Assembly: GCA_964016885.1 (NCBI GenBank) | Contig: OZ024741.1 | Span: forward strand, 343,542,001-343,606,000 | Reading direction: 5' to 3' | Length of the DNA: 64,000 bases | Source of the DNA: Eledone cirrhosa | Taxonomy: Eukaryota | Shown: piece by piece, positions 2,044-61,840 of the stretch | Position numbering within the stretch: the first letter of the stretch is position 1 | Layout: the number at the start of each line of letters is the position of its first letter | Notes under the pieces: model-generated | The model's database searches: none | Told to the model about the DNA's origin: nothing | Seen by the model: the letters and a program-made list of their open reading frames with translations, nothing else | Position numbers and translations under genes: made by a program

Positions 2044-2078
2044 GTGGTCTTTCCCATCTTTTCCACTCTATTTTAAAC

Positions 2079-5000: not shown

Positions 5001-5492
5001 GTCTGGCAGTGCTACCGGGGAGCTTTGCCAGTTCGGGATAAACTTTACAGGCATGGAGGTGCCGTCAGCTGGGCATGTCCGAGATGCGCCCAGGGCGACG
5101 AAACCGTCCTGCACGCACTCGTCCAGTGTCCGAGCATTGCTGACTCGTGGGTTTATGTCGAACACCTGCTGTCACGTGTAGGACCGATCCGGCTATCAGC
5201 TGAGTCCATCGTGAGGATTGCCTCGCCCTCTGCCTTTAGCCGGGAAGAGCAGGCAGATTTTATCTGTCTGGTAGCCATGGCGAAAGAGATAGTATGGTGG
5301 ACACGTTTGAAAGGGCTGAAGACGAGCACTTACATCTTCGGTGATGCCCTGATTAACTTTTTCAAATGTCATTTGAAAAGGAAAATCAGGGTAGAGAGGG
5401 AAGTACTCTCTTCCCAGCATTTTGTTGAAAGATGGGTGAGAGAAGCAAGTATGGCCCGAGTGAATGGGCCTACTCTGAGTATGTGTCTGTAA
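2079..5492 (+). pseudogene. Tx1 ORF2: AP endonuclease, reverse transcriptase, zinc finger
   Basis: MTSLKIGSINARG start; DVVAISET, VYAP, LVGDWN and YTDH APE motifs; RPITLLN, LDQSKAFDRVDH, VRQGCP and AYADD (YADD 4126-4137); CPRC...ETVLHALVQC. Split over several frames. Confidence 0.9.
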
Positions 5493-5741
5493 ATTAAAGG
5501 TGGAAAACTGTGAGAGGGCACTTGCCCTGGTGGTCAGGGTCACTGTGGTCTTTTAATGGGCTTTCTCCACAAATGCCCCTCGGAAGTCTCCCGCCCCCCC
5601 TATTGGGGAATTTTTCTTTCTTATTTTTATTACATCCTCTGTTTTATTTACACGCAGAAATGCCTATTTGTACCGTCCTGTATTGTCTTGTACTGTCCTT
5701 AATGTCTACTTTATGTAAACCCTTGTGGTTAATAAAGAACA

Positions 5742-5742
<1 letters not shown>

Positions 5743-5793
<51 letters not shown>
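5743..5793. repeat. (ATT/TAA)n microsatellite between the Tx1 3' end and the Dong 3' end
   Basis: Pure trinucleotide tract of about 17 units. Confidence 0.95.
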
Positions 5794-5795
<2 letters not shown>

Positions 5796-8700
5796 AGTTG
5801 CATTTATCTTGCTTTATGTTCATACGAGTTATCACCAAGTCACAACCAGTGACCTCAAGAGACAACAAGGTCCGCCATGTTCAAGAAAGAACATACATAC
5901 TCACACATGCATCTTTAATGTTTAGACTTGTGATGTACTTATATTGACAGAATCTTCCTTAGTATATGGGCAGTTCCCATTAGTACTATCTTTTGTATTT
6001 CTCCTATACGCGGGTTTCCTGGGATTTGCGATAAGTAATCATTAGACCCCTTAGGTATCATTCCCAGAGCGCCTACAACCACTGGTATTGTTTTAGTTCT
6101 CAATTTCCACATTTTTCCAATTTCTATCTCCAGGTCCTTATACTTGCTCAATTTTTCAAATGTTTTTATAGATACATTCTTGTCTATTGGAACAGACATA
6201 TCAATTAGCAGGCATACCCTCTTTTTAAAGTCCTTCAATATTATATCAGGTCTATTTGCATCTATTTTTCGGTCTGTTTGGATGCTGAAGTTCCACAAGA
6301 TTGAGATGTGATCTTTTTCAAGTATGGGAGGTGGTTGATGCTCCCACCAATTCTTTTGATGGGGAAGGTCAAAATGCTTACACATTATCCAATGTATGTA
6401 TTGTGCAGCTCTGTCATGCCTGTTTAGGTATTCGGTTGGAGCTATAGGACTGCACATTGAAATTACATGGTCAATGGTCTCTGGTTCTTTTTTGATATTA
6501 ACGGCATAATGGGCTGCATCCATTTTTTATTATGTTGGCTTGGTAATTTTTTGTTGGCAGAAACTGATCTTGTGCTGATATAATCAGTCCTTCAGTCTCC
6601 GATTTCAGTTCAGAGGATGCCAACAACTGATGGGTTAATGTTTTGTCAACATCAGGATTGTTAGCTCGCTCTGGGTATTTTCCATACAGAGGCTTTTCTT
6701 GCCATTTCTTAGCCAGTTTCTGTAGCAGTTCTTTCTTTGCAGTTACTTTTACCTGCTTTGCTTTTTCTGTGTTTTCCATTTCAGCAGTAAATGGGACTTC
6801 TGAAATGTGTAGTCCATTACTGTATCTTTGTGCATCTTTTGTAATGGAATATGATCTTTTGATGCTTTCGTGTTTCAAAACGAGTTTGATCATCCAATCA
6901 TGTGATTCCCTTAGATATGTAGATAATCCAATTGTTGCAGTTTTCAACGCATTGTCTAACTGGATTAAACTACGTCCTCCTTCTTTCTCAGGGAGATATA
7001 TTCTATTTATATCTGCCTTAGGGTGATGCATTCTGTGCATGGTTAAGAATTTTCGAATTTTTGTATCGAGCCTACGGATCTCTGTGCTTGACCAGTTGAT
7101 GACATTGTAACTGTAGGTTACTACTGGTATGGCAAGCGTGTTTATGGCATCGATCCTATTCCTTGCATTCAATTCCGTTCTTAAGATTGCTGTTACTCTG
7201 CGGTAACATTCCTTCCTTATCCTTTCCCTCATTGTCGAGTGCTTGATTCCGTCTCCTTCACAAACACCTAGATATTTGTAAGTTTTTTCTTGATCAAGTT
7301 CTCTTATCACGTTCCCCCGATCAAGATTAAAGTCTGAACTCTTCAGCAGCTTTCCTCTGGTGAACGTTGCTTTGGCGCATTTATCTAGTCCAAACTCCAT
7401 CATTTTAATGTCATCACTGAACTGCCCCACAGTGGATAATAGCCCTTGCAATTGTTCATCATTTTTTGCAAATAGTTTCAGGTCATCCATGTAGAACAAG
7501 TGATTAATGGTTTTGTCATAGGCTTTATATCCATTTTTTGTTTCATTGAGCATTTTACTTAATGGTATAAGTGCGATGCAGAATAAAAGCGGTGATAAAG
7601 AGTCACCCTGAAAAATTCCACAATTAATATTAACTTCTCCAGCTTCCAGTGATTTTGTTTCACTATTCAAAAGGAGTGTCGTTTTCCATGTCTTCATACT
7701 GAATGACAAAAACCTCCTGACAACGGGGGATATTTTGAAAATCTCTAAACATTTTTCAATCCAACTGTGTGGCAAACTATCGAATGCTTTTTTATAATCT
7801 ATCCAAGTAATCGATAGATTTTTGTGTCTATTATGACAATCTCCCAGTATCATTTTGTTAACCAGAAGCTGATCCTTACAGCCATATGAGCCTCGTTTAC
7901 ACCCTTTCTGCTCAATGGGAAATAGGTCATTTGTTATCAGGTGGTCATATGTGTATTCAGTTAGGACTGATGTTAAAATTTTATACATTGTGGTCAAGCA
8001 AGTTATCGGTCTGTAATTTCTGGGATTGTTTGTCTCATCATTCTTCGGAAGCAGGAATGTAATGCCGTTAACTAGCCATGAAGGTATCTTTTCTGGCTCC
8101 TTAACTATTTCATTGTAAAGTTGGGCTAACAGCTCATGAGACTCTGTGAAGGCATTTATCCAAAAGTTTTGTATTTTGTCTTTTCCTGGGGATTTCCATT
8201 TGCTGGTTTTTCTTAGAGCCAAGCGCAACTGTTCAACTGTTATATTTTCCCATGTTTGTTCCTCAAGGTGAGCTGTATCTTTCATTTGTCTGTCTATCCA
8301 TGGGGCATGTATGTTATGAACTTTTTCTTCGGCCCAGATCTTTTCCCAGAATTCTTGCACTTCCTCCTTGGGTGGTATTGATTTAGCAGTTATTGTTGAC
8401 TTACCAATTTTTCTGTAGAAGTTTCTTTGGTTGTTTTTGAACATATTATTGTCCTTATAGAATCTAGATCGTTTTTCAAAGCGCATTATACGAGCAGCTT
8501 TGGCCGACACTTTTTGCTTGATTATTTCTATCAGCATGTCTATGTCACATGTTGATTTTATACTGTACTTTTTTTTCAATTTTCTAAGTTTAATTTGTTT
8601 AATATGTTCACCTACTTTATAGTTTGTTAAAATTTCTATGTCAGATCGGAGAAGGTTTATTTGGCGATTGATGTTCTCTTGCCAAGTAGATTTCTTGTGG

Positions 8701-9780
8701 GAATTCCTTTGTATTTTCATCTTCACTCCACATAAGTGAGTGGTGACTTTAGCCGATGCATAATAGAGATGATTTAAATCAGTAATGTTTAGTTTGTTTG
8801 TGATGATAATGTTTTTGAGAATTATGTTAGTCTTGTGTATTATCTTTTGGTTCTGTTTGGAGTTCTGGATCTTAGGGAGGGTGTCTCGTTGCCCCATGTC
8901 AGATTCTTTCATTTTCATCCATTCGATCATAATTTCATCCTTCAAGTTGGCAAGTTCATTCTCATTCATTTCTTTATCATTTACGATCTCATTATTTTCA
9001 TTTGGAGTTTCATCCTGAGCATGCACTCCCTCCACTTTTTCGATCCTTTCTTTAATTTGTTCTGTTGCCAGTGATTCCGCCCCGCCCCAACCCTGGGATT
9101 CGAAGTGTTACAGTTTACCTCGTTTTCACTGACACATGTTTCATTTTCCCTTCGCTGACTTTGTGCTAATAGCTTGATCTGATCAATTTCTATATCAGTT
9201 AGTAACGTTTTCCTTACAATATTTCTTCGTATATTGGCTAAGTTTGTTACTGTCAATATAGCCTCTGTTTTCGGGATGTTTCTTTTTCCAGTTGATATAT
9301 GTCTGTTCTGTATTCGATGTATTTGATGGCTAGTACATGGCAGTGTAGAAAGCCTCAAGGACTTCTTTATTATCTTCCCTTGACCATTTTTCTCTCTTTT
9401 TCTTTGGATTTCTTGGTGGTGAGCATGGAGGGCCAACAGTAGGAGTATTCCGGTTATGGGAGGTCTCCAGCTCCGAAGTGATGGGAAGGTTTGAACCATT
9501 AGCTGATTTTTCGACCCCAGTCTGGTTCCTCTCTGAGGGACGCCGCCCTTTTTTACCCGGGTGACGGCCGATCCGGTATGAGATTTAATCATTAGACATT
9601 TACTTTATTTTGTCGCGTTTTATCCTTATCCGCCAAGGGGTAATCATTTCGTGTTACCACTTCTAGAACGAGTGTCAACTAAGACTAGAGGGGCCGTTCT
9701 CCCCTAGAGACACGGCTATTCCCCGCCGGCCGCCATCCCGGTATTTCTTGGTCACGGGGTTTTCTTTTTGTTGTTTTTTT
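5794..9780 (-). mobile_element. Dong/R4-clade RLE non-LTR retrotransposon (copy 1), near full length
   Basis: A single ORF broken by frameshifts (9592-8981, 9035-6498, 6523-5939). RT motifs DYKKAFDS, GIFQGDSLSPLLF and FYMDDLKL; CCHC (CR..ETIDHVISMC); RHD; RLE RPDIIL...IDMSVP...KLSKY. The 3' end runs into (TAA)n. Confidence 0.9.
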
Positions 9781-9845
9781 AAATTGTTATTATCATGAGT
9801 GGTTCCTTAATGTGAGCATTGCGTGGCAAAAGAATGAAATTATTA

Positions 9846-9893
9846 ATAATTGTCTCCACTCCAGGCACAAGGCCAGCAATCACCCAGTGCACC
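9846..9893 (-). mobile_element. 3' fragment of the Deu/Nin-type SINE
   Basis: ATAATTGTCTCCACTCCAGGCACAAGGCCAGCAATCACCCAGTGCA matches the tail of the full SINE copies. Confidence 0.65.
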
Positions 9894-9979
9894 ACAATAA
9901 TATAATATACTTTTTGTTGTTATAATAATATAATATACTTTTTGTTATTATTATTATTATTATTATTATTGTTGTTATT

Positions 9980-12780
9980 CCTTGAATCTCAGTCATTGAT
10001 GTTGGTTAACTGGAAAGTCCGTTGGAATGAATATCAAGCCACTACCTGCAGCCTCAGATATTCAGGACGTATCGGAGGGTTCTTGCTGTTCCAAGCAAGC
10101 ATGCCTTTTGAAGCGTTCCAAAAAGCGTGAAGGGGCCGATTTTCTTTAACCATCCCTGGAAACTTTTGGAGATAGTCCCCAGTGCGCCTATGACAATCGG
10201 GATCACTTTGACTTCATGGCAGTTCCAAATCCTTTTCACCTCCCACTTTAGGTCCTGGTATCGGTTAATTTTCTCCCTCTCCTTCTCTTGCACTCACGTG
10301 TCGAAAGGGCAGGCCACATCCACAATCAGACACGATCTTTTTTCTTTGTCCACAACCACCAGGTCAGGTCTATTGTGTTCCAGTTTTTTGTCCGTCTGTA
10401 TCCTAAAATCCCACAGCACCTTCACCTGATTGTTCTCCATCACCGCCTGTGGCCTATGCTCATACCATTTCTCAGAATGTGGTAAATTGTTTACTTTGCA
10501 CAGGTGCCAGTGGATCATCCTGCCCATCACATCGTGTCTCCAGCCCTTATAGTGGGTCTGGGCTAGGTGTTTACACTCGGACACAATGTGAGCCACAGTC
10601 TCCTCTCTCTCTCCACAGATCCTGCACTGTGGGCTAGCCTCCTCCTTGTAAATATGGTGCTTCAACCACTTCGTTTTGAGGGCCTGCTCCTGCGCAGCCA
10701 TTAGCATTCCTTCTGTAGCCTTTTTGAGGTCTCCTCTTCTCAACCAGTTCCATGTCTGTGGATCTCTAAATTCAGTTTTCTCAAAGAAGGTACTATGAAG
10801 GGATTTTCCCTTAAGGCTGCTCTTCCTCCTTGATGTTATTTCCTCCTTGGACATCCCCTGGCCTACTGTCCCCTCCTTCAGTACAGTTCTGAACATTGGC
10901 TCCTTACTATAGGTCACGTATTTGTATAGGTTGTTTTTCTCCATCTGAACACAGTCCTCTATGCTGATAAGACCTCTTCCACCCTCAGATCTCCTTAGGT
11001 AGAGTCTATCGACATCACTCCTCTTGTGGAACATGTTGTAGATAGTCAATAGCTTCCTAGTCTTCCTATCCATTTCTTTTTTTAGCAACATTCCATCTCA
11101 GAATTCCCGCACTGTACCTAATAATAGACACAGCTCGGGAATTTACTGCGCTTATGGCATTTCTGCTGTTCAGATGTGACTTCAATACACTCCTTACTCT
11201 CCGAATGTATTCAGTTCTTAACAATTCCTTCATTTTTTTGTTCTTTATGCCATCAGCCTCCAGAACGCCCAAATACTTGTATCCTTCCTCAGAGTCAATT
11301 TCCTTTATCATCTCACCTGTTGGTATATGGATCCCGTTACTTCTGCTCAACCTACCCCTCCTCATCACAATGACTCCACATTTACTAATACCAAACTGCA
11401 TACATATATCACTGCTGAAAATACGGACAGTGTTAACAAGCACATCCAACTCCTTCTCACTTTTCACGAAGAGCTTAAGATCGCCCATGAAGAGGAGGTG
11501 ATTGATGTTAAGCTCTCCCTTTCCCAACTTGTATCCTGCTCTCACTTTTCGCAGCATAATGGTCAAGGGCATCAGGGCAAGGACAAACAACAGAGGGGAC
11601 AGGCTATCTCCCTGGAAGATACCTCTCTTGATCTTCACGCTTCCCAAGGATACTCCAGTTGATGTCAACTCTGTCTCCCAAGACCCCATACTCCTGCCCA
11701 GCAACTGTCTGATGTTATCTGCCACCCTGAATATCTCCAGGCTTTTGGTGATCCAAGAATGAGGCACCATGTCAAATGCCTTTCTGTAGTCTATCCATCC
11801 TATGGCAAGATCAGTGTGTCTCCTCCTGCAATTCCCCATTACCATCTTATCAATAAGTAACTGGTCCTTTGTACCACGTGACTTCTTTCGGCATCCTTTC
11901 TGTTCGTCCGGTAACAAGTTGTTTGTGTGGAGGTGATGGTAGATTTCTTCAGACACAATGCTCGTCAACAGTTTCCACATTACGGACTGACATGTGATAG
12001 GTCTATAGTTGGTAACATCATTACCCTTGATTCGGTCTTTCATTATCAGAACTGTGGTACCTTTTGTCAACCACTCTGGCACCTCACCCGACACCAAGCA
12101 GTCATTGAACATGGCCGTCAGCTTCGGGTGGAGGGATGTTAAATTTTTAATCCAATACCCCTGCACACCATCTGGGCCTGGTGATTTCCAGTTGGTTAGT
12201 TTTTTGGCCTGCCCATTAAGAGTTTCAACTGTGATACTCAAATCAGTTTGTTGGTGTGCCTGCTCACCGAACTCCCTCTGTACTGTCTCAATCCACCCTG
12301 CCTGGACATTATGTCTAACACCCTGCTCCCATATTCCTCTCCAGAATGTTTTAGTTTGCTCCGCCCCAGGGATCAAGTCGTTGCCTCTTTCTTTCCCCTC
12401 AAGCTGTCCAAACAGCATCTTCTGGTTGTTGTCGAACATGCGGTTCTGTTTATACTGACTGACTCTGTTCTCGTATCGCCTGATTTTTGCACTCTTTGCT
12501 ACAATGCGTTGCTTCAGTTCCTCTATGATAATATTTAGCTTTTCCTCCTAGTTTTGTACTTTATTTCCAGTCTATTTTTAGTGCCTATGTTTTTTAGTGT
12601 CCCATTCAGTAGTGACTCAAGCTTTCCTATGTCATTTCTCATTTCGCTGATTTGACCACTCAGTCGTTTCTTCCACCACGGCTCTGCTCTTTCTTGTCTG
12701 TTGTTTCCTCTCGCTTTTATACCAAGTAGTTTCCTCACCGTATTTGCTGTTGCTTTGAGGATATTGTTGCACTGGTGAAC
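9980..12780 (-). mobile_element. Dong/R4-clade RLE non-LTR retrotransposon (copy 2, different family), 5'-truncated
   Basis: RT motifs DYRKAFDMVPH, GIFQGDSLSPLLF and LFMGDLKL (catalytic D lost); CRICG..ETVAHIVSEC; RHD; RPDLVVVD..DVACP; EKINRYQDL. Flanked on both sides by (TAA)n (9944-9978, 12781-12846). Confidence 0.9.
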
Positions 12781-44048: not shown

Positions 44049-44140
<92 letters not shown>

Positions 44141-44145
44141 GTATG

Positions 44146-44179
<34 letters not shown>

Positions 44180-44600
44180 TGTATGTATGTATATACAGAT
44201 ATACAGTGGCGGACTGGGTCTAAAAATATTGACTGCCAGGAGATGAAGGGGGCCCACCTACATATAGAATGCTATCATGTAATTTTTATAATGAATAAAT
44301 AAAATTTTCAAAAAATACATAAGTGGAAACAAAACAGTGTAATCAACTTTTTGCGGGAAAATATCTTACCTTCTTCAATAAAAAATAGGTATTTTGTGAA
44401 ATCCAGAGACTTTCAATAATTACCTTTGGTCTTTCACACTCACACTATATATATATATATATATAATAATAATATTATTTATAGTTATATATACACTATA
44501 TATAACTATAAACAGGAAAGGTCAGTATTTTATAACTACCTTATTACCAGTAAGAAAAATAGCTCAATGTAAATACATCAGATGTTTTACAAAACAGGAA

Positions 44601-45390
<790 letters not shown>

Positions 45391-45656
45391 CAATATATAT
45401 ATATAGTAATGGAAAAAATTTAACGAAATTTCATTTCTCACTCTTAGTACTCTTGTTACTTAAATATAAGTATGTATACGTACATACATATATGTATACA
45501 GACGTACAGTAGTATGTATATATATATACCTACATGCACATATATATATATATGTAGGTATGGATTTACCGAACATTTATTATAGTGCTCGGATGTTTGT
45601 AAACCAACATCCCGAATTAAGCCGTACACTGTTTAGCAACCAACGTTGCCCTTTTG

Positions 45657-45706
<50 letters not shown>

Positions 45707-45788
45707 CACCTTCACCACTAATTGATTTTACAGGTGTCTTTAACCCATTGGTACCAAAGATTATTTAGCCAGTAATTCATGTATGTGT

Positions 45789-45855
<67 letters not shown>

Positions 45856-46543
45856 GTAGAGCTATTTGCCCTATAATATATTTTGGTTCCTATTAATTCC
45901 TTGCGGAATTGATTGACAAAATGCTTAGCTTATTTCTTTTATTATTATTTTTTTAATTTCATTCTTTCTCTTAGACTTCGGGTATTCTTTGAAAGCTAAG
46001 CATTTGCCCCTAAGATACTACAGTGGGTCCTGCAATGCTACTGTGAGGTCCTGCAATGCTACCGTGGACCTCCTGGGGCCCATTTGCCATTGGGCAACCT
46101 GGCAACCTGGCCAGTCCACCACTGTATATATATATATATATATATATACATATTTCCACTCACTCCCTCTCTGTTTCTCCCCTTCTCACTTCCTCCCGTT
46201 CGTTAGTAGTGGGATTCTTTCTTTCTCACATCTCATTCACGTCGGCGGTCTGTTTTCTGACCGTTCATGAAATTCTCCCAGCTTATGCTGACCGGATAAC
46301 CATCATGTTGCTTGCTTTTCTCCTACCTTCGGTTTACTTTTCCTTCTATGTTGTTTACTTGTCTCACTCGCTTTACGCGATTCACTTGTCCCAATAGCTT
46401 ATTTTAGTTATTGCTCGCACCAACCTGAGGTATATGATTTTTAATGCGATGAAATACCAATGATGGTTGGCAAATCACTGATGAGGGACTAATTTTATAA
46501 TATGTAACCCATGTGCAACCACGCAGTTTTCCTCTTTCTTCCC

Positions 46544-46645
<102 letters not shown>

Positions 46646-46647
46646 TG

Positions 46648-47487
46648 TTTTCTCTTTCTCTTAATTTTGAGTATATTTTTTTGACCGGCCACTCTCCTGG
46701 TGGCAAGGTTGTAAAAGAAAAGAAATTGTCATCCCTTGAATCGCAAGAATGTTTTGCAAATTTTGAAGGTGCCAGCTATCGCAGCCATTTGTAGACTATG
46801 AATTAGGGAGCTGCGCTTTTTTTCCGCAAATCCAAGTTCAGTCATACTTTGGTCCAAGCGGGTTGGTATATAACCCGTAGCACCAATAATGATGGGTATG
46901 AAGCTAAAGGTGTATCTTGGATACTGGATTTGTAAACTCCTCATCAATGGTCCGTAGATGTCCTCCTTCTCCTGTATTTTTCTGACAACGTTTACATCAA
47001 GTGGGCAACTGATCTCCACAACAGAACACGTTTTCAATGTGTGGTCCCAAACTACAATATCAGGCCGGTTGTGCTTTAATCTGGTGGCAGTTTTTATTTT
47101 CAGGTTCCACCAGTATTCCTTAGTGCCATCTGTCTCAATATATTCTTCCTCGTTTGTTATTAATTTTGTTTTCCGAAGTGCGTTCCAGATGGTTCTAGCT
47201 ATCCCATCGTGTCTCATGGGGAGGTAGTAGCGAGATGACATTCTTTCGCAGCTGGCAACAATGTGGCTTACATCCTCGATCTTTGTTTTACATAGCCTAC
47301 ATTTATTGTCAGCTGCTGGCCCTCCTCTTTTGTGCAGCAGATATTTGGTAGGGAGTTCTTGTTCCTGTATTGCATAGAGATATCCCTCAAGGTGTGATGT
47401 CATAAACTTGTCGGAACTCCATGCCAGGCTTTTTGAGTGGTTTATCCCCTCTATGGTCTGTGTTTTACGCCTCAAGTATCCATGCAC
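46648..47487 (-). mobile_element. 5'-truncated RLE non-LTR element in (TATG)n, copy 1
   Basis: Open 252 aa frame with CRLC..EDVSHIVASC, RHD and RPDIVVWD..VVEISCP..KEDIY, a short 3' UTR, then (CATA)n. Confidence 0.9.
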
Positions 47488-48615
47488 ATGTATGTATGTA
47501 TGTATGTATGTATGTATGTATGTATGTATGTATGTATGTATGTATATACAGTGGCGGACTGGGTCTAAAAATATTGACTGCCAGGAGATGAAGGGGGCCC
47601 ACCTACATATAGAATGCTATCATGTAATTTTTATAATGAATAAATAAAATTTTCAAAAAATACATAAGTGGAAACAAAACAGTGTAATCAACTTTTTGCG
47701 GGAAAATATCTTACCTTCTTCAATAAAAAATAGGTATTTTGTGAAATCCAGAGACTTTCAATAATTACCTTTGGTCTTTCACACTCACACTATATATATA
47801 TATATATATAATAATAATATTATTTATAGTTATATATACACTATATATAACTATAAACAGGAAAGGTCAGTATTTTATAACTACCTTATTACCAGTAAGA
47901 AAAATAGCTCAATGTAAATACATCAGATGTTTTACAAAACAGGAATATAAATTACACAATAATCAAAACTATGTTCAAATAATTTTATTGCTGACAATCG
48001 TTTCTTCCAAACTTTTGCTCGTGTTCTTCGGAGCTTTAGCAAAGTTTGGACATATAATTAACTTCCTATTCAACTGAACAATCATAGATACATGGATATT
48101 AATGTTGTCATCAACAGTTTCGTATTTACAGAGTGGAATGGATGTGACAGAGATTACAAGAGAATAGTATAATAATTAAAGCAGTATAGAGAGTGCAAGT
48201 GCGTTAGGCATATACAGGACAGTTAGGTAGGAAAACAAGCAATGATACTAGGTATATATAATTACTGCATGGCAAAAGAATCGCATAAAATAACATAGGT
48301 TTACAAGCATATAAAGCAGGCAAAGGTGTTTGTGTATTAAAATCATGAGTTTATGGTGAATGTAGTGTGATAATTATTTCTGTAATGTTCAGATGTGCGT
48401 GTGTTGAGAGTATTATTATTATTATTGTTATCACTCTGTAAATACGAAACTGTTAATGACAACATTAATATCCATGTATCTATATGATTGTTCAGTTGAA
48501 TAAGAAGTTATTTATATGTCCAAACTTTGCTAGTGCTCCAAAGATGTCAAACGAAAGCTTGGAAGAAACGATTGTCAGCAATAAAATGATTTGAACATAG
48601 TTTGATTATTGTGTA

Positions 48616-48721
<106 letters not shown>

Positions 48722-48987
48722 CAATATATATATATAGTAATGGAAAAAATTTAACGAAATTTCATTTCTCACTCTTAGTACTCTTGTTACTTAAATATAA
48801 GTATGTATACGTACATACATATATGTATACAGACGTACAGTAGTATGTATATATATATACCTACATGCACATATATATATATATGTAGGTATGGATTTAC
48901 CGAACATTTATTATAGTGCTCGGATGTTTGTAAACCAACATCCCGAATTAAGCCGTACACTGTTTAGCAACCAACGTTGCCCTTTTG

Positions 48988-49035
<48 letters not shown>

Positions 49036-49117
49036 CACCTTCACCACTAATTGATTTTACAGGTGTCTTTAACCCATTGGTACCAAAGATTATTTAGCCA
49101 GTAATTCATGTATGTGT

Positions 49118-49172
<55 letters not shown>

Positions 49173-49441
49173 GTAGAGCTATTTGCCCTATAATATATTT
49201 TGGTTCCTATTAATTCCTTGCGGAATTGATTGACAAAATGCTTAGCTTATTTCTTTTATTATTATTTTTTTAATTTCATTCTTTCTCTTAGACTTCGGGT
49301 ATTCTTTGAAAGCTAAGCATTTGCCCCTAAGATACTACAGTGGGTCCTGCAATGCTACTGTGAGGTCCTGCAATGCTACCGTGGACCTCCTGGGGCCCAT
49401 TTGCCATTGGGCAACCTGGCAACCTGGCCAGTCCACCACTG

Positions 49442-49472
<31 letters not shown>

Positions 49473-49862
49473 TTCCACTCACTCCCTCTCTGTTTCTCCC
49501 CTTCTCACTTCCTCCCGTTCGTTAGTAGTGGGATTCTTTCTTTCTCACATCTCATTCACGTCGGCGGTCTGTTTTCTGACCGTTCATGAAATTCTCCCAG
49601 CTTATGCTGACCGGATAACCATCATGTTGCTTGCTTTTCTCCTACCTTCGGTTTACTTTTCCTTCTATGTTGTTTACTTGTCTCACTCGCTTTACGCGAT
49701 TCACTTGTCCCAATAGCTTATTTTAGTTATTGCTCGCACCAACCTGAGGTATATGATTTTTAATGCGATGAAATACCAATGATGGTTGGCAAATCACTGA
49801 TGAGGGACTAATTTTATAATATGTAACCCATGTGCAACCACGCAGTTTTCCTCTTTCTTCCC

Positions 49863-49964
<102 letters not shown>

Positions 49965-49966
49965 TG

Positions 49967-50806
49967 TTTTCTCTTTCTCTTAATTTTGAGTATATTTTTT
50001 TGACCGGCCACTCTCCTGGTGGCAAGGTTGTAAAAGAAAAGAAATTGTCATCCCTTGAATCGCAAGAATGTTTTGCAAATTTTGAAGGTGCCAGCTATCG
50101 CAGCCATTTGTAGACTATGAATTAGGGAGCTGCGCTTTTTTTCCGCAAATCCAAGTTCAGTCATACTTTGGTCCAAGCGGGTTGGTATATAACCCGTAGC
50201 ACCAATAATGATGGGTATGAAGCTAAAGGTGTATCTTGGATACTGGATTTGTAAACTCCTCATCAATGGTCCGTAGATGTCCTCCTTCTCCTGTATTTTT
50301 CTGACAACGTTTACATCAAGTGGGCAACTGATCTCCACAACAGAACACGTTTTCAATGTGTGGTCCCAAACTACAATATCAGGCCGGTTGTGCTTTAATC
50401 TGGTGGCAGTTTTTATTTTCAGGTTCCACCAGTATTCCTTAGTGCCATCTGTCTCAATATATTCTTCCTCGTTTGTTATTAATTTTGTTTTCCGAAGTGC
50501 GTTCCAGATGGTTCTAGCTATCCCATCGTGTCTCATGGGGAGGTAGTAGCGAGATGACATTCTTTCGCAGCTGGCAACAATGTGGCTTACATCCTCGATC
50601 TTTGTTTTACATAGCCTACATTTATTGTCAGCTGCTGGCCCTCCTCTTTTGTGCAGCAGATATTTGGTAGGGAGTTCTTGTTCCTGTATTGCATAGAGAT
50701 ATCCCTCAAGGTGTGATGTCATAAACTTGTCGGAACTCCATGCCAGGCTTTTTGAGTGGTTTATCCCCTCTATGGTCTGTGTTTTACGCCTCAAGTATCC
50801 ATGCAC
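49967..50806 (-). mobile_element. RLE fragment, copy 2
   Basis: Same 252 aa translation as copy 1. Confidence 0.9.
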
Positions 50807-51934
50807 ATGTATGTATGTATGTATGTATGTATGTATGTATGTATGTATGTATATATGTATGTATATACAGTGGCGGACTGGGTCTAAAAATATTGACTGC
50901 CAGGAGATGAAGGGGGCCCACCTACATATAGAATGCTATCATGTAATTTTTATAATGAATAAATAAAATTTTCAAAAAATACATAAGTGGAAACAAAACA
51001 GTGTAATCAACTTTTTGCGGGAAAATATCTTACCTTCTTCAATAAAAAATAGGTATTTTGTGAAATCCAGAGACTTTCAATAATTACCTTTGGTCTTTCA
51101 CACTCACACTATATATATATATATATATAATAATAATATTATTTATAGTTATATATACACTATATATAACTATAAACAGGAAAGGTCAGTATTTTATAAC
51201 TACCTTATTACCAGTAAGAAAAATAGCTCAATGTAAATACATCAGATGTTTTACAAAACAGGAATATAAATTACACAATAATCAAAACTATGTTCAAATA
51301 ATTTTATTGCTGACAATCGTTTCTTCCAAACTTTTGCTCGTGTTCTTCGGAGCTTTAGCAAAGTTTGGACATATAATTAACTTCCTATTCAACTGAACAA
51401 TCATAGATACATGGATATTAATGTTGTCATCAACAGTTTCGTATTTACAGAGTGGAATGGATGTGACAGAGATTACAAGAGAATAGTATAATAATTAAAG
51501 CAGTATAGAGAGTGCAAGTGCGTTAGGCATATACAGGACAGTTAGGTAGGAAAACAAGCAATGATACTAGGTATATATAATTACTGCATGGCAAAAGAAT
51601 CGCATAAAATAACATAGGTTTACAAGCATATAAAGCAGGCAAAGGTGTTTGTGTATTAAAATCATGAGTTTATGGTGAATGTAGTGTGATAATTATTTCT
51701 GTAATGTTCAGATGTGCGTGTGTTGAGAGTATTATTATTATTATTGTTATCACTCTGTAAATACGAAACTGTTAATGACAACATTAATATCCATGTATCT
51801 ATATGATTGTTCAGTTGAATAAGAAGTTATTTATATGTCCAAACTTTGCTAGTGCTCCAAAGATGTCAAACGAAAGCTTGGAAGAAACGATTGTCAGCAA
51901 TAAAATGATTTGAACATAGTTTGATTATTGTGTA

Positions 51935-52042
<108 letters not shown>

Positions 52043-52310
52043 CAATATATATATATATAGTAATGGAAAAAATTTAACGAAATTTCATTTCTCACTCTTA
52101 GTACTCTTGTTACTTAAATATAAGTATGTATACGTACATACATATATGTATACAGACGTACAGTAGTATGTATATATATATACCTACATGCACATATATA
52201 TATATATGTAGGTATGGATTTACCGAACATTTATTATAGTGCTCGGATGTTTGTAAACCAACATCCCGAATTAAGCCGTACACTGTTTAGCAACCAACGT
52301 TGCCCTTTTG

Positions 52311-52346
<36 letters not shown>

Positions 52347-52428
52347 CACCTTCACCACTAATTGATTTTACAGGTGTCTTTAACCCATTGGTACCAAAGA
52401 TTATTTAGCCAGTAATTCATGTATGTGT

Positions 52429-52481
<53 letters not shown>

Positions 52482-53165
52482 GTAGAGCTATTTGCCCTAT
52501 AATATATTTTGGTTCCTATTAATTCCTTGCGGAATTGATTGACAAAATGCTTAGCTTATTTCTTTTATTATTATTTTTTTAATTTCATTCTTTCTCTTAG
52601 ACTTCGGGTATTCTTTGAAAGCTAAGCATTTGCCCCTAAGATACTACAGTGGGCCCTGCAATGCTACTGTGAGGTCCTGCAATGCTACCGTGGACCTCCT
52701 GGGGCCCACTTGCCATTGGGCAACCTGGCAACCTGGCCAGTCCACCACTGTATATATATATATATATATACATATTTCCACTCACTCCCTCTCTGTTTCT
52801 CCCCTTCTCACTTCCTCCCGTTCGTTAGTAGTGGGATTCTTTCTTTCTCACATCTCATTCACGTCGGCGGTCTGTTTTCTGACCGTTCATGAAATTCTCC
52901 CAGCTTATGCTGACCGGATAACCATCATGTTGCTTGCTTTTCTCCTACCTTCGGTTTACTTTTCCTTCTATGTTGTTTACTTGTCTCACTCGCTTTACGC
53001 GATTCACTTGTCCCAATAGCTTATTTTAGTTATTGCTCGCACCAACCTGAGGTATATGATTTTTAATGCGATGAAATACCAATGATGGTTGGCAAATCAC
53101 TGATGAGGGACTAATTTTATAATATGTAACCCATGTGCAACCACGCAGTTTTCCTCTTTCTTCCC

Positions 53166-53267
<102 letters not shown>

Positions 53268-53269
53268 TG

Positions 53270-54109
53270 TTTTCTCTTTCTCTTAATTTTGAGTATATTT
53301 TTTTGACCGGCCACTCTCCTGGTGGCAAGGTTGTAAAAGAAAAGAAATTGTCATCCCTTGAATCGCAAGAATGTTTTGCAAATTTTGAAGGTGCCAGCTA
53401 TCGCAGCCATTTGTAGACTATGAATTAGGGAGCTGCGCTTTTTTTCCGCAAATCCAAGTTCAGTCATACTTTGGTCCAAGCGGGTTGGTATATAACCCGT
53501 AGCACCAATAATGATGGGTATGAAGCTAAAGGTGTATCTTGGATACTGGATTTGTAAACTCCTCATCAATGGTCCGTAGATGTCCTCCTTCTCCTGTATT
53601 TTTCTGACAACGTTTACATCAAGTGGGCAACTGATCTCCACAACAGAACACGTTTTCAATGTGTGGTCCCAAACTACAATATCAGGCCGGTTGTGCTTTA
53701 ATCTGGTGGCAGTTTTTATTTTCAGGTTCCACCAGTATTCCTTAGTGCCATCTGTCTCAATATATTCTTCCTCGTTTGTTATTAATTTTGTTTTCCGAAG
53801 TGCGTTCCAGATGGTTCTAGCTATCCCATCGTGTCTCATGGGGAGGTAGTAGCGAGATGACATTCTTTCGCAGCTGGCAACAATGTGGCTTACATCCTCG
53901 ATCTTTGTTTTACATAGCCTACATTTATTGTCAGCTGCTGGCCCTCCTCTTTTGTGCAGCAGATATTTGGTAGGGAGTTCTTGTTCCTGTATTGCATAGA
54001 GATATCCCTCAAGGTGTGATGTCATAAACTTGTCGGAACTCCATGCCAGGCTTTTTGAGTGGTTTATCCCCTCTATGGTCTGTGTTTTACGCCTCAAGTA
54101 TCCATGCAC
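53270..54109 (-). mobile_element. RLE fragment, copy 3
   Basis: Same 252 aa translation as copy 1. Confidence 0.9.
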
Positions 54110-55237
54110 ATGTATGTATGTATGTATGTATGTATGTATGTATGTATGTATGTATATATGTATGTATATACAGTGGCGGACTGGGTCTAAAAATATTGAC
54201 TGCCAGGAGATGAAGGGGGCCCACCTACATATAGAATGCTATCATGTAATTTTTATAATGAATAAATAAAATTTTCAAAAAATACATAAGTGGAAACAAA
54301 ACAGTGTAATCAACTTTTTGCGGGAAAATATCTTACCTTCTTCAATAAAAAATAGGTATTTTGTGAAATCCAGAGACTTTCAATAATTACCTTTGGTCTT
54401 TCACACTCACACTATATATATATATATATATAATAATAATATTATTTATAGTTATATATACACTATATATAACTATAAACAGGAAAGGTCAGTATTTTAT
54501 AACTACCTTATTACCAGTAAGAAAAATAGCTCAATGTAAATACATCAGATGTTTTACAAAACAGGAATATAAATTACACAATAATCAAAACTATGTTCAA
54601 ATAATTTTATTGCTGACAATCGTTTCTTCCAAACTTTTGCTCGTGTTCTTCGGAGCTTTAGCAAAGTTTGGACATATAATTAACTTCCTATTCAACTGAA
54701 CAATCATAGATACATGGATATTAATGTTGTCATCAACAGTTTCGTATTTACAGAGTGGAATGGATGTGACAGAGATTACAAGAGAATAGTATAATAATTA
54801 AAGCAGTATAGAGAGTGCAAGTGCGTTAGGCATATACAGGACAGTTAGGTAGGAAAACAAGCAATGATACTAGGTATATATAATTACTGCATGGCAAAAG
54901 AATCGCATAAAATAACATAGGTTTACAAGCATATAAAGCAGGCAAAGGTGTTTGTGTATTAAAATCATGAGTTTATGGTGAATGTAGTGTGATAATTATT
55001 TCTGTAATGTTCAGATGTGCGTGTGTTGAGAGTATTATTATTATTATTGTTATCACTCTGTAAATACGAAACTGTTAATGACAACATTAATATCCATGTA
55101 TCTATATGATTGTTCAGTTGAATAAGAAGTTATTTATATGTCCAAACTTTGCTAGTGCTCCAAAGATGTCAAACGAAAGCTTGGAAGAAACGATTGTCAG
55201 CAATAAAATGATTTGAACATAGTTTGATTATTGTGTA

Positions 55238-55345
<108 letters not shown>

Positions 55346-55613
55346 CAATATATATATATATAGTAATGGAAAAAATTTAACGAAATTTCATTTCTCACTC
55401 TTAGTACTCTTGTTACTTAAATATAAGTATGTATACGTACATACATATATGTATACAGACGTACAGTAGTATGTATATATATATACCTACATGCACATAT
55501 ATATATATATGTAGGTATGGATTTACCGAACATTTATTATAGTGCTCGGATGTTTGTAAACCAACATCCCGAATTAAGCCGTACACTGTTTAGCAACCAA
55601 CGTTGCCCTTTTG

Positions 55614-55649
<36 letters not shown>

Positions 55650-55731
55650 CACCTTCACCACTAATTGATTTTACAGGTGTCTTTAACCCATTGGTACCAA
55701 AGATTATTTAGCCAGTAATTCATGTATGTGT

Positions 55732-55782
<51 letters not shown>

Positions 55783-56466
55783 GTAGAGCTATTTGCCCTA
55801 TAATATATTTTGGTTCCTATTAATTCCTTGCGGAATTGATTGACAAAATGCTTAGCTTATTTCTTTTATTATTATTTTTTTAATTTCATTCTTTCTCTTA
55901 GACTTCGGGTATTCTTTGAAAGCTAAGCATTTGCCCCTAAGATACTACAGTGGGCCCTGCAATGCTACTGTGAGGTCCTGCAATGCTACCGTGGACCTCC
56001 TGGGGCCCACTTGCCATTGGGCAACCTGGCAACCTGGCCAGTCCACCACTGTATATATATATATATATATACATATTTCCACTCACTCCCTCTCTGTTTC
56101 TCCCCTTCTCACTTCCTCCCGTTCGTTAGTAGTGGGATTCTTTCTTTCTCACATCTCATTCACGTCGGCGGTCTGTTTTCTGACCGTTCATGAAATTCTC
56201 CCAGCTTATGCTGACCGGATAACCATCATGTTGCTTGCTTTTCTCCTACCTTCGGTTTACTTTTCCTTCTATGTTGTTTACTTGTCTCACTCGCTTTACG
56301 CGATTCACTTGTCCCAATAGCTTATTTTAGTTATTGCTCGCACCAACCTGAGGTATATGATTTTTAATGCGATGAAATACCAATGATGGTTGGCAAATCA
56401 CTGATGAGGGACTAATTTTATAATATGTAACCCATGTGCAACCACGCAGTTTTCCTCTTTCTTCCC

Positions 56467-56552
<86 letters not shown>

Positions 56553-56605
56553 CTGAACAAAAGAGAAAAACTAACACAGATATATACATATATGTGTTTA
56601 AATCT

Positions 56606-58043
56606 TACAGCGCCTTGGAATCATTTCGATATGCTGCCACCTGTGCCTCTGCAGCCTGATCTTCTAACCGCTGGCGCTTGTCTTTTCGACAGCTCTTCTT
56701 TACTTCCTTGTCAAGACGTCTGTACTCTTTGTCCACTTCCTTCCATTGCTGTCGAGTTTTGGTTTGATCTCTTTTGTTCTTAACATCCTTCCTCTTGTCA
56801 ATGAGATTCCATGAAGTACTGCTCATCCACTGTTCCCGGTTGGTCCCCCTTCTTCTACCAACAACTACATCAGCACTCGCCCTGACCGCCTGAGCAAACA
56901 TCTGCCACTGGTCTTCAGGGTTCTGTACGTGCTCTAGTTCTTGGAACATATTCCTGATCTCCAGGTAGAATCCCTCTGACGTGCCTTGGTCTTGCAGGCT
57001 TGCGACAGCATATGGCCTCACGGTCTTATTTGCTTTGTTCTTCTTCAAGCGGATTTTTCCAACCACAAGATGATGGTCAGATCCGACGTCTGCCCCACGT
57101 AGGTGCGAACATCCAAGAGAGAGGAACGCCACCTCGTGCCAATGCAGATATAATCAATCTTATTCCTGGTGTTGCCATCAGGGGAAGTCCATGTCATCTT
57201 GTGAATCCGCCTATGGGTGAAGAATGTATTCCCGATGGAGAGGTTGCTGATACTGCTCAGGGACAGCAACCGTTCCCCGTTGTTATTGGTGGAATCAGCT
57301 GAACCGTGGGAGCCAATGGCTGAATGCATTTCTCTCCTGTCTCCATATAGCTTGGCATTGAAGTCACCAATCACCAGCCTAATATCTGACCTGGGTGTTT
57401 CCTCTAGGACATCCTGTAGTTGGATAAATAAGGTATCCTTATCTTCATCTGAGGCAGCTTCAGTCGGGGCGTAGACTTGCACTACGGTCACCTTGGCTAA
57501 CCTTGTGCTCAACCTGGCAGTAATAATTCGTTCACTCACTGGCCTCGATCCCGCAAGAGACCGTGATACATCTCCGGTGAGGATGATACCAACTCCCTGG
57601 AGATGGTGGTCATCATCACCGGAGTAGAGAATAGTCATGTCTCCGCTGTCGAGTCGTCCCCGTCCTGTCCACCTCGTCTCGCTGATGCCCATGATGTCAA
57701 GGCGATATTCTCTCATCTCCTTCAGCACCTGCTCCATCCGCCCGTCCCTCTTTCGGGACGGGCGGATGGAGCGTGCGGACATTCCAGGTGCCTACACTTG
57801 TGTTTGATTTGGCGTTGAAGATAGGACTTATCCGCGGTCGGGTATCCTTTCGGCTTTGACCCAGCCATATCATAGGTGCATCCAGGGATGACGTGTCTTC
57901 TCTTACTCCGCCGCTGGGTATCAAAATGGTTTTTCTCGTCGTTTCTGTAGCGGTGAAACGTTTTTACGGGGGTAGGGCTGCTAACCCCACACCCCAACCT
58001 TCCTCTTTTCTCAACCGGGCTTTGGACCGGCTAAGGCGGAGTT
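56606..58043 (-). mobile_element. RTE-clade LINE 5' half (5' UTR and APE), inverted
   Basis: VGTWNVRTL, DIMGISETRWTG, VQVYAPT, IGDFNA, NKIDYI and VGSDH motifs. Ends at ...AAYRNDSKAL. Confidence 0.92.
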
Positions 58044-58044
58044 A
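57992..58044 (-). ncRNA. Twister ribozyme (P1 type), 3' cleavage-product portion
   Basis: U|AACUCCGCCUUAGCCGGUCCAAAGCCCGGUUGAGAAAAGAGGAAGGUUGG matches the twister pattern UAACUCYGCC..GCCGGUCCCAAGCCCGG..GAGGAGGG. P4 is UUAGCCGG/CCGGUUGA and P2 is CUC/GAG. Confidence 0.85.
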
Positions 58045-59692
58045 ATGATTCCAAGACGCCTGATTCTAAGGCAGATCGACATGATTCCAAGACGCTGTAC
58101 CGGATCGTCAGAGAGCTAACTGGAGGACGAAGTGGAAGCAGTTTGCCAATCAAGAGCAAAGATGGTCGGATGCTTGCAGCTAGTGAAGAGTAGGCCCAGA
58201 GGTGGAACGAACACTTTCGTGAGGTCCTCGATTAGCCATCCCCCAACACAGTCTTCGAGTTTGACTGGGAGGAAGCGAGCTACCGGCTGGATGTACGACT
58301 AGACGACATCACAAGAGCTGAGGTGGCCAAGGCCATCCGCTGCCAAAAGAATAACAAAGCGGCAGGACTGGATGAGATTCCTGCAGAGCTTTGAAGCACG
58401 GCAAGGATGTAATAGAGGACCAGCTCACCCATTTATGCAATGTGATTTGGCAAGAAGAGGAGGTGCCGGAGGACTGGATAAATGGAGTGATTGTACCACT
58501 ACTGAAGAAGGGCTGTCTCACGCTGTTATCAGTGCCAGGGAAGGTATTCTGCACAGTCATTCTGAACCGGCTGAGAGCAGAAGTAGATCGTCATTTTCGA
58601 GACGAACAGGCTGGCTTCCGCAGTTGAAGGTCTTGTTCAGAGCAGATCTTCACTCTCCGAAATATCATTGAACAATGTCGGGAGTTCCACAAGTCCCTTG
58701 TTGTCAACTACATTGACTTCAGGAAAGCTTTCGACAGTGTTCATCGGGAGTCATTGTGGAAGATTGTAAGACTCTACGGTGTCCGAGAGAAATATATTAA
58801 CATCTTCGGGTCGCTGTACCGACATTCCAGGTGTTGCGTTAGGACAAAGGACGGAAACACGGAAATGTTTGACATCTCGACGGGTGTTCGACAAGGCTGC
58901 ATCCTTTCGCTTTTCCTTTTCAAAATTGTCATCAATTTCATCATGAAGAAGACAATGAGTGACCCTCGTTTTGGAATTAGTCGGGATGGAAGGAGATTAA
59001 GCGACCTGGACTTTGCCGATGACATCGTAGTGATAGGCCATTCCCGAGAAAACCTGCAAGAGATGACAAACGTTCTAAATGACAATGCAGAGAAAGTTGG
59101 CCTGCGCATCAGTTGTGAAAAAACTAAGACCATGTCGACAGGTGACCCTCCAAATCCTCCCATCATGTTTGGTCAACGTAAGATTGAATGTGTAAACCAC
59201 TTCCAATACCTTGGCAGCAACATCTCTGACGATGGGGATGCTGAGGTGAATGTGCGCACAAGGCTGGGAAAAGCAGCGGCGGTCTTCCAGCGACTCCGTC
59301 CGGTATGGTCCAAGTGTTCCATCGGCAACGCCGTCAAATTCCGTGTTTACATGTCCATTGTAGTACCAACAGCGATATATGCCTGTGAGACATGGAAGAG
59401 TACGGAAAGTGTATGTAATAAGCTTGATATATTCCACCGTCGTTGCATTCGGACCATATTGAAAATTTCATGGGGAGACCAAGTTAGCAGCGAGGAAGTC
59501 ATGAGGAGGTCAGGATTGGAGAGGTTATGGGAAATTGTCCGGAAAAGGAGACGGCGGTTCGCCGGCCACATCCTTCGTTTGCCGGCAGATCGACCTGCTC
59601 ATATTGTCATGGATTGGGTACCAGAAGGTGGCAGGAGAGAACGGGGAAGAGAACGAAAAACATGGCGGAGCACATTCAGGGAAAGATTACAG
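58044..59692 (+). mobile_element. RTE-clade LINE 3' half (RT), decayed
   Basis: Starts at DSKTLYRIVRELTG. Motifs LLSVPGKVF, DEQAGFR, IDFRKAFDSVHRE, GVRQGCILS, DLDFADD, HFQYLGS, YACETW and FAGHILR. Confidence 0.92.
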
Positions 59693-59770
59693 GCACCTCT
59701 CGCCCAGGATTGAACCCAAGACCAGGATACCCACTGTCTCTAGTACCTACGGCTAGTCCACTGAGACAAC
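59693..59770 (-). mobile_element. tRNA-like (Ser-type) SINE head
   Basis: GTTGTCTCAGTGG...ACTAGAGA...GGGTTCAATCC with a long variable region. The cloverleaf is not intact. Confidence 0.4.
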
Positions 59771-59998
59771 TAATTCATACTTATAAAGCTACTTTCAAAA
59801 TTTTCAAAACAATATGATGTGGTGTCGTTCATGTCTTGCTTAATCATATTGCTCCTACTTAAGGTCGATTGTAAATCTTTTGAGTGTTCCATAAACTACA
59901 TCCTAGTTTTGTTTCTCATCTATCTAGAATATATTTTAACCTGTAATCAATGTTTCATTTCTGTTGCACCTCATTTCTCCCCCCCCTCTCTCTATCAA

Positions 59999-61024: not shown

Positions 61025-61840
61025 TATTCTAGGGCGGGTAAAATTCCCGAGATCCATGGACAAGTTCTCTCCAGCGGTCTCTGTCCCTCATTATCGCTGC
61101 CATGTCCTGCGTCTCCAACAGACCAGTGGCTGTCCTTAGGGCATCAACATACGTTAACCTTGGTCTTCCACTTCCAGTGTGTCCATGTAGGGGCTACCAC
61201 AAGAGCACTGAGTGCAATGTCAACTCTGAATATCGGTGAGCATGTCCAGCTAACCTCAGTCTCATCTGTGTCAATTTTGAGCTGACTTTTGGGAGGCTCC
61301 CATACAGCTCTGAGTTTTTCATCCTCAGTGTATACTGATTAATGTTCAGAGCCGTCCTCAGCATTCTCGTGTAGCACCCATCCACCATCTGAGTGAGTTC
61401 CTTGGTCAGTGTCCAAGTCTCAGATCCGTAAAGCAGCACAGACTCCACTACAGCAATGAAGAGACGGATTTTTAGATCTTTACGAAGGTCTGACTTCCAC
61501 ACCAATCTCAAGCTGTGGCAAGTCGCCCAGGCTTTGCTCTTCCTCTCAACCACACCATCTTCCGTATTCCCAATCTTTACTCCCAAATACAGAAAGCCCT
61601 CAACCAATTCTAGCGGCTTCCCGCCTTCATTAGTGATCCCCTCTGGCTTCTCAACATTCTCTTCCAGATATTTTGTTTTAGTCTCATTCATTCTCATCGA
61701 CACCGTCTTAACCTCCTGCATCAAATCCTTCACTGTATTTGTCACCAAAACTATGTCGTCGGCAAATTCAGCATCCGATATCTTTTTCGCCTTAACTATC
61801 CTGCTCTGAGCCGGTGCAACAGTAAAGCCACAGTCCTACC
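61025..61840 (-). mobile_element. RTE-type LINE 3' fragment
   Basis: EFADDIV, FLYLG, VESVLLYGSETWTL, RLRLAGH and GRPRLTYVDAL...MRDRDRWR motifs. Confidence 0.85.

Follow-up and report, generated by a model that had tools for sequence, protein, structure and literature searches.

Twin-primed, that is 5'-inverted, L1 insertions are known from mammals and were reportedly described by Ostertag and Kazazian in 2001. In the available portions of later surveys, 283 of 1703 inverted L1s (17%) carry an internal duplication with a median length of 22 bp, a short duplication is found in 10 of 32 inverted L1s of another set, the outer junction shows 2-5 bp of microhomology in about 70% of inverted L1s, and L1 inversions are typically 5'-deleted as well. 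As far as the accessible text of PMC4245944 goes, inversions arose solely with human L1 in human cells, bar one Nimb-2 insert, and the accessible text of PMC4476161 describes no more than chimeras formed by template switching between U6 and RTE or L2.

Our search of the literature on twin priming (RTE, non-LTR elements of invertebrates, Drosophila, CR1), with thin coverage of subscription journals, found no report of an inverted RTE insertion, and the word "inversion" is absent from the main text of two octopus papers. Ichiyanagi and Okada (2008) is said to cover RTE junctions. RTE elements have a single ORF and a short 5' UTR and lack ORF1, a definition that draws partly on the available text of PMC13174262. 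In the RTE element Perere-3 of Schistosoma mansoni, the target-site duplication (TSD) directly adjoins the AA of the twister cleavage site, and full-length copies begin there (PMC8501958, in the sections available). In the part of PMC11662667 at hand, no cephalopod twister was active in the large in vitro CHiTA screen.

Here we describe an RTE-type element with an inverted 5' part in a window of 64,000 nucleotides from Eledone cirrhosa (contig OZ024741.1, positions 343,542,001 to 343,606,000). All coordinates refer to this window. The copy is dead, with no evident function. We consider twin priming at insertion, followed by a later 3' deletion, the probable history of this copy, and hold with greater confidence the broader reading that the inversion was in some way coupled to the insertion of a single RNA.

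An RTE-type element in two opposed pieces

A decayed non-LTR retrotransposon of RTE type, about 3 kb long, occupies 56606-59682 in two oppositely oriented pieces, which comprise the following features.

56606-58043, minus strand: inverted 5' segment of 1438 nt (5' UTR, endonuclease, linker)
57117-57761, minus strand: AP-endonuclease domain (Pfam PF03372, E 1.6e-9)
58071-59682, plus strand: non-inverted 3' segment of 1612 nt (linker, reverse transcriptase, thumb)
58628-59221, plus strand: C-terminal part of the reverse-transcriptase (RT) domain (Pfam PF00078, E 6.1e-22)

The two pieces are consecutive parts of one RTE-type ORF. In tblastn, residues 45-470 of a 1044-aa relative (P0002) align with the minus strand from 57912 down to 56608, and residues 462-1012 with the plus strand at 58071-59692. 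The identical split was obtained with all five further relatives tried (six of the 120 listed proteins were tested, P0002 included). The minus-strand ORF terminates in the codons RNDSKAL at 56606, so that both the ORF end and tblastn bear out the original prediction of a minus-strand 5' half ending there at NDSKAL. The 3' half does lie on the plus strand, as had been proposed, but it starts at 58071, 12 nt before the predicted start near 58083. The resulting order, flank, antisense 5' segment and sense 3' segment, with the two segments joined head to head, is that of a twin-primed insertion.

The architecture is that of RTE elements, with a single ORF in which an AP endonuclease precedes the RT, no ORF1, and a short 5' UTR (about 170 nt separate the element's 5' end from the Met aligned with the start of the protein P0005). 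The best relatives are mostly APE-RT proteins of 940-1050 aa with 50-59% identity, and the assignment to an RTE-type clade is by architecture. The inverted segment has lost one base at 57098, which shifts the frame, while the 3' segment contains stops, a frameshift at 58391 and a 27-nt deletion at 58517 and is cut at 59682. No further copies of the element were found in the window among the BLAST matches listed.

We aligned contigs of four runs (X1, X2, X4 and X12) to 56548-59960. Of the 18 runs listed, 13 contain part of this stretch and none contains half of it; no RNA run is listed. One 831-nt contig (X2, record 17) follows the window from 56848 down to 56614 and continues from 58092 to 58659, with five differences in the minus half and 15 in the plus half, and three X4 contigs share its collinear joint. 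The family is collinear at this point and the present copy is the rearranged one. Because this family contig bridges the break, the layout is not due to chance.

The two halves are similarly diverged from their relatives. Counting only contig pieces with at most 15 differences, in contigs that are collapsed and merge subfamilies, the 5' and 3' halves differ at 15/887 (1.7%) and 18/718 (2.5%) positions in X1 (Fisher p 0.29) and at 16/821 (1.9%) and 25/759 (3.3%) in X2 (Fisher p 0.11). Both halves thus lie 2-3% away from the family contigs and, at the resolution of collapsed contigs, belong to one family. An origin of the halves in different subfamilies, which had been named as grounds for dropping the twin-priming reading, is not what the similar divergence and the collinear contig indicate at this resolution.

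Overlap and filler at the inner joint

Three features at the inner joint carry versions of one short sequence.

56606-56634, minus strand: overlap copy 1, codons AYRNDSKAL
58071-58099, plus strand: overlap copy 2, codons ADRHDSKTL
58044-58070, plus strand: filler of 27 nt, consisting of two partial copies of the overlap in sense orientation, one of 16 nt and one of 11 nt

The two halves have 29 nt in common with three mismatches (E 3.4e-4 within the window), which confirms the overlap expected at the breakpoint. The inner breakpoints are therefore adjacent in the family sequence, with an overlap of 29 nt as compared with the L1 median of 22 bp. The halves had also been described as lying side by side at the element's 5' end; they are on opposite strands as described, but they do not abut, as the filler intervenes.

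The longer part of the filler matches each overlap copy at 15 of 16 letters and the shorter part at 9 of 11, and the 16-mer has no other match in the window at up to three mismatches. No flank DNA is present at the joint. At both discordant sites within its reach the filler has the majority letter, and all overlap copies thus derive from one sequence. A DNA end copied the overlap sequence twice ahead of the final join; the polymerase would have been either the RT or a host repair enzyme. Snap-back of a cDNA was considered as the cause of the entire inversion and rejected, since it would duplicate all of the inverted bases and the duplicated ones number 29 of 1438.

The three differences among the 29 sites of the overlap copies, together with the merging of subfamilies in collapsed contigs, could also point to two RNAs or two insertions of one family, the ends having been primed on different RNAs or an antisense copy having landed in another copy and later been trimmed. 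Age alone would give three differences 15% of the time, unrelated ends would meet within 30 nt only about 2% of the time under simple assumptions, and the antisense piece lacks a separate 3' end, and we regard such a double origin as very unlikely.

A twister-like motif at the predicted first base of the element

The inverted segment ends in a candidate ribozyme.

57994-58043, minus strand: twister motif resembling the T-variant (Rfam twister-P1 and a match to Table 1 of PMC8501958)

The Rfam twister-P1 model matches 57994-58048 on the minus strand with 40.1 bits (E 1.4e-6), below the gathering score of 67.2 bits, under which this decayed, P1-less copy falls. Among the 50 matches of a whole-window Rfam scan it is the only one that is not to a microRNA model. 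The motif can be parsed as AA, CUCC, GC, a very short P3, the core CCG-GUCC.AAGC-CCGG, and then AGAG, GAAGG and UUGG, which retains the conserved order and sequence of L1, P2, L2 and P4 of the T-variant; the upstream P1 strand is absent from the present copy. Two private changes, at 58000 and 58006, damage the motif. All of the X1 and X2 depth shown has C at both positions, which restores GGAG and GAGGG, and the family motif is therefore intact while the present copy is damaged. Folding of the 69-nt 5' end gave a z-score of -0.5, which is uninformative for a pseudoknot. Searches for the motif gave no match in the searched files of the supplement of PMC9115989 or in that of PMC8501958.

The motif opens with AA (58043-58042), which is predicted to lie immediately 3' of the cut, and the inverted half ends on this AA at 58043, to within one base as the filler begins with A. 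This position gives independent support that the inverted segment reaches the first base of the processed RNA, and with it to the earlier claim that the second cDNA extended to the very 5' end. Judging from the sequence, the RNA 5' end would have been set by twister self-cleavage.

Upstream of 58041, 53 contigs of relatives in X12 extend into a common sequence, so relatives do not all start at the predicted cut site; by eye, this upstream sequence could provide the P1 strand. Up to 99 X12 contigs cover the twister and UTR (57916-58041), and many of them depart from the element near 57932-57961. These contigs possibly represent a non-autonomous relative that is short and headed by a twister, or else several further RTE families.

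The position of the joint also bears on a history in which a normal full-length insertion had its first 1.4 kb inverted later by DNA break repair, with a staggered break giving rise to the overlap and templated synthesis to the filler. Templated filler and short microhomologies are known repair scars (polymerase theta) and would fit such an event, and at least one rearrangement of the locus, the loss of its 3' end, is evident. It also contains a private fold-back duplication within the coding region.

57731-57772, no strand assigned: inverted repeat of 18 bp without mismatches around a 6-nt loop, located where the endonuclease begins; roughly 14 additional nt disrupt the frame

X4 and X12 contigs lack the bases at 57748-57767, and the hairpin resembles a fold-back copy by which a weak palindrome was made perfect. 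A later inversion, however, requires one break to fall, to one or two bases, on the boundary between element and flank, with no flank DNA inverted and no 5' base lost or left behind. If the break could fall anywhere within 500 nt, this would happen about 0.5% of the time (an illustrative figure). We consider this history improbable.

Outer ends and flanks

Both outer ends of the element lie in host repeats.

56564-56604, no strand assigned: left flank, part of a host repeat that occurs in many copies and is interrupted at the insertion (21 X1 and 25 X2 contigs)
56605-56607, plus strand: putative outer junction, placed by comparing the loose-end consensus of the flank with the plus copy
59682-59870, minus strand: right flank, a host repeat present in many copies, truncated at 59682 and sharing 1 nt with the element

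On the left, the 21 and 25 contigs track the window to 56604 and then continue into a common different sequence, with a consensus agreement of 0.71-0.73. The bases TA at 56606-56607 are compatible with the antisense element as well as with the flank repeat, each of which predicts GTA where the window has TTA. The putative outer microhomology, which depends on the repeat consensus, is therefore 2 nt, or 3 nt assuming that the T at 56605 is a later change; by our own arithmetic, at least 2 nt would be expected by chance about 1 time in 6. No sense remnant of the element is found at the outer joint.

On the right, the element had been taken to end at 59692. We reject a reading that far, as the family contigs depart from the window sequence after 59682 (3 in X2, 32 in X12) and contigs of the flank repeat enter there, coming from a different sequence common to them (49 in X1, 50 in X2). 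The loss of the 3' terminus, in turn, is evident from the absence of about 35 codons and the 3' UTR relative to P0002. The short 3' UTR of RTE elements ends in tandem repeats. With the element cut at 59682, the intact 3' terminus and tail that belong to a twin-primed insertion are missing. It had likewise been foreseen that no TSD could be demonstrated, and this is the case: the right end is deleted, and the only 6-mer common to both sides, TTACAG (56605 and 59687), was rejected as a 6-bp TSD because its right copy lies inside the flank repeat past 59682 and its left copy inside the element.

The right flank repeat has no continuation of its own at 59682, and no overlap exists between the 30-nt continuations of the two flanks. 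If both flanks belonged to one repeat copy, which is a guess, at least about 55 nt of target would have been lost. By eye, against the standard box consensus sequences, the right flank contains a tRNA-like A box at 59758-59767 and a B box at 59707-59716; ARAGORN and Rfam detected no tRNA in it. One X1 joint going back from 59792 to 59704 suggests tandem flank-repeat units in other copies. Elsewhere in the window there are no copies of the right-flank repeat, and the two continuation motifs are also absent from it; in prokaryote genomes the flank repeats were not found.

The right end admits a variant of the single-RNA inversion in which insertion of the 3' end did not take place at all: each side of a break that already existed or had been resected primed internally on the RNA, and the break was patched. 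Element and right-flank repeat break off at the same position, 59682, sharing 1 nt; the left repeat is truncated as well, and a single event would account for both ends, with 3' truncation and target loss dating from the insertion. Yet the exact overlap at the 3' joint is just 1 nt, inverted L1 inserts retain discrete TSDs of 12-18 bp in cell experiments (in the part of that work available), and the copy has aged by 2-3% and bears other later deletions. We think it unlikely that a break was patched in this way. Twin priming with a later loss of the 3' end is preferred because of those other deletions in the copy.

Junction coverage, inverted relatives and genomic surroundings

None of the contigs listed crosses any of the three junctions of the locus and no read across it was seen, so that the locus is known from the assembly. 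Joints expected of a collinear allele or an empty site are absent from the joint rows shown (15 of 97 and 12 of 30). Flank cover in X4 and X12 is little or none, and we gave it no evidential weight.

All of the 15 joints shown out of 97 are from X4, and each of them is represented by one contig. Four are collinear in family terms and nine are skips within one half. One joint, from 57037 to 58685, has the same head-to-head inversion polarity as the present copy, with a 3-nt overlap. Another, 57093/57491, changes strand with no polarity given. Two cross-half joints, 57144/58633 and 57160/59046, are listed without strand, may be plain deletions, and were excluded from the inversions. Inverted relatives therefore exist, and the X4 joints yield no frequency for them.

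A metagenome scan returned seven loci out of 178 candidates, 40-68% identical, with all tblastn matches on the plus strand; none of the seven has a UTR match, and no twister was found in the five that were scanned for it. In one locus (L003), a long GC-rich hairpin at 4649-4739 directly follows the end of the RTE match shared with L002 and is probably a small inverted-repeat element.

The surroundings of the element are rich in other repeats. About 3.7 tandem copies of a 3.3-kb unit, 97-99% identical, fill 44139-56544 and finish in a (TA)n run, 60 nt from the left edge of the RTE element. Each unit has a 3' LINE ORF fragment (zinc knuckle, PDI motif), which we take to be of the restriction-like endonuclease type, and a pair of 190-bp inverted repeats. 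The array is either a recent duplication or an assembly stutter. A second, different RT-bearing LINE fragment lies on the minus strand at 61194-61835, with no DNA match to the RTE element among the matches listed. A cluster of decayed LINEs occupies 1042-12547, including RT elements on the minus strand at 5939-9107 and 10294-12547 and a plus-strand element at about 2800-5500 that is presumably L1/Tx1-like. For another LINE ORF of the window, just two of 31 matches carry an organism name, and both are cephalopods (Argonauta hians and Acanthosepion pharaonis, 45-55% identity); a SINE in the window resembles an octopus SINE.

The nearby array and (TA)n run, and the lack of a listed contig over the junctions, are what one would cite for a chimera made in assembly or library preparation. 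Such a chimera would copy one sequence exactly, whereas the three overlap copies carry separate substitutions, and the joint falls on a biological landmark. We regard an artefact of this kind as extremely unlikely.

A model of the insertion

The original prediction of an origin by twin priming is supported, short of proof: the layout, the overlap, the putative microhomology of 2-3 nt and an end on the predicted twister cut all fit. We favour twin priming because the two ORF halves are consecutive on opposite strands while a family contig is collinear over the break, and because the joint sits on the twister AA with no flank DNA inside and no sense remnant outside. Parallels among L1 insertions for the overlap and the outer microhomology, and the one X4 joint of the same polarity, argue in the same direction. 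Against it weigh the missing TSD and 3' tail, two defining marks that would be decisive, and a right end that needs a second event, the absence of junction-spanning reads or contigs, and an outer microhomology that is short and read from a consensus of about 0.7 agreement. The twister match is also below threshold, its cleavage is predicted and cephalopod twisters were inactive in the screen, inversions in cell assays are nearly confined to human L1, and L1 inversions are typically 5'-deleted too.

Under twin priming, one RTE RNA, its 5' end made by twister self-cleavage, would have been copied from both cut target ends. The first cDNA would have run from the RNA 3' end to about element position 1410. 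The other target end may have annealed by 2-3 nt at about position 1438 and primed the second cDNA, which would have run off at the first RNA base. The overlap would then arise because the first cDNA went 29 nt beyond the second priming site. The filler may have formed when the free end of the second cDNA was extended in two brief rounds on the tip of the overlap, ahead of the lasting join. A later deletion would have removed the element's 3' end, the tail, the right TSD and some flank.

A bolder extension, which we find doubtful, is that twin priming is routine in RTE elements and not an L1 speciality, that the RT joins the cDNAs by repeated jumps from the ribozyme-cut end onto the tip of the other cDNA, as recorded in the filler, and that the family supplies an active cephalopod twister.

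Comparison with known systems

Like the twin-primed L1 insertions of mammals (PMC2912911, PMC11702581 and bioRxiv 10.1101/2024.08.27.596794, in their available parts), the present copy consists of flank, an antisense 5' part and a sense 3' part, with close inner breakpoints and a short duplication, a putative short outer microhomology and extra bases at the inner joint. Unlike them, it is a single-ORF RTE-type element of a cephalopod, its inverted part extends to the first base where L1 is 5'-deleted, its filler repeats the overlap twice, and its TSD and tail are lost.

The 5' end resembles that of Perere-3, as given in the accessible sections of PMC8501958, in the order AA-CUCC-GC ... CCG-GUCC.AAGC-CCGG ... 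GGAG-GAGGG-UUGG, in the short UTR followed by one APE-RT ORF, and in a copy that starts at the AA. It differs from Perere-3 in that P3 is reduced to a few bases, filler instead of a TSD occupies the upstream P1 position, the copy has two damaging changes, and the ribozyme is predicted from sequence. The snap-back junctions of R2 cDNA (PMC11371274, available portion) are similar in that antisense element sequence is joined to the upstream flank and cDNA 3' ends prime on cDNA. R2 snap-back, however, yields antisense duplicates of sequence retained in sense, in contrast to the small duplicated share here, and could explain the filler at most.

The locus therefore exemplifies an insertion type already known, within a clade of elements where our search turned up no printed case; the ribozyme landmark strengthens this reading and the lost 3' end weakens it. 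The cell assays in the available text of PMC4245944 pointed to a dependence of 5' inversion on L1 and mammalian host factors. The RTE case would mean that priming on the RNA by the second target end requires neither ORF1 nor a mammalian host. A ribozyme marks the first base of the RNA exactly, a marker that L1 does not have, and families of this kind therefore permit a clean genome-wide test of where inverted segments end and how the two cDNAs are joined.
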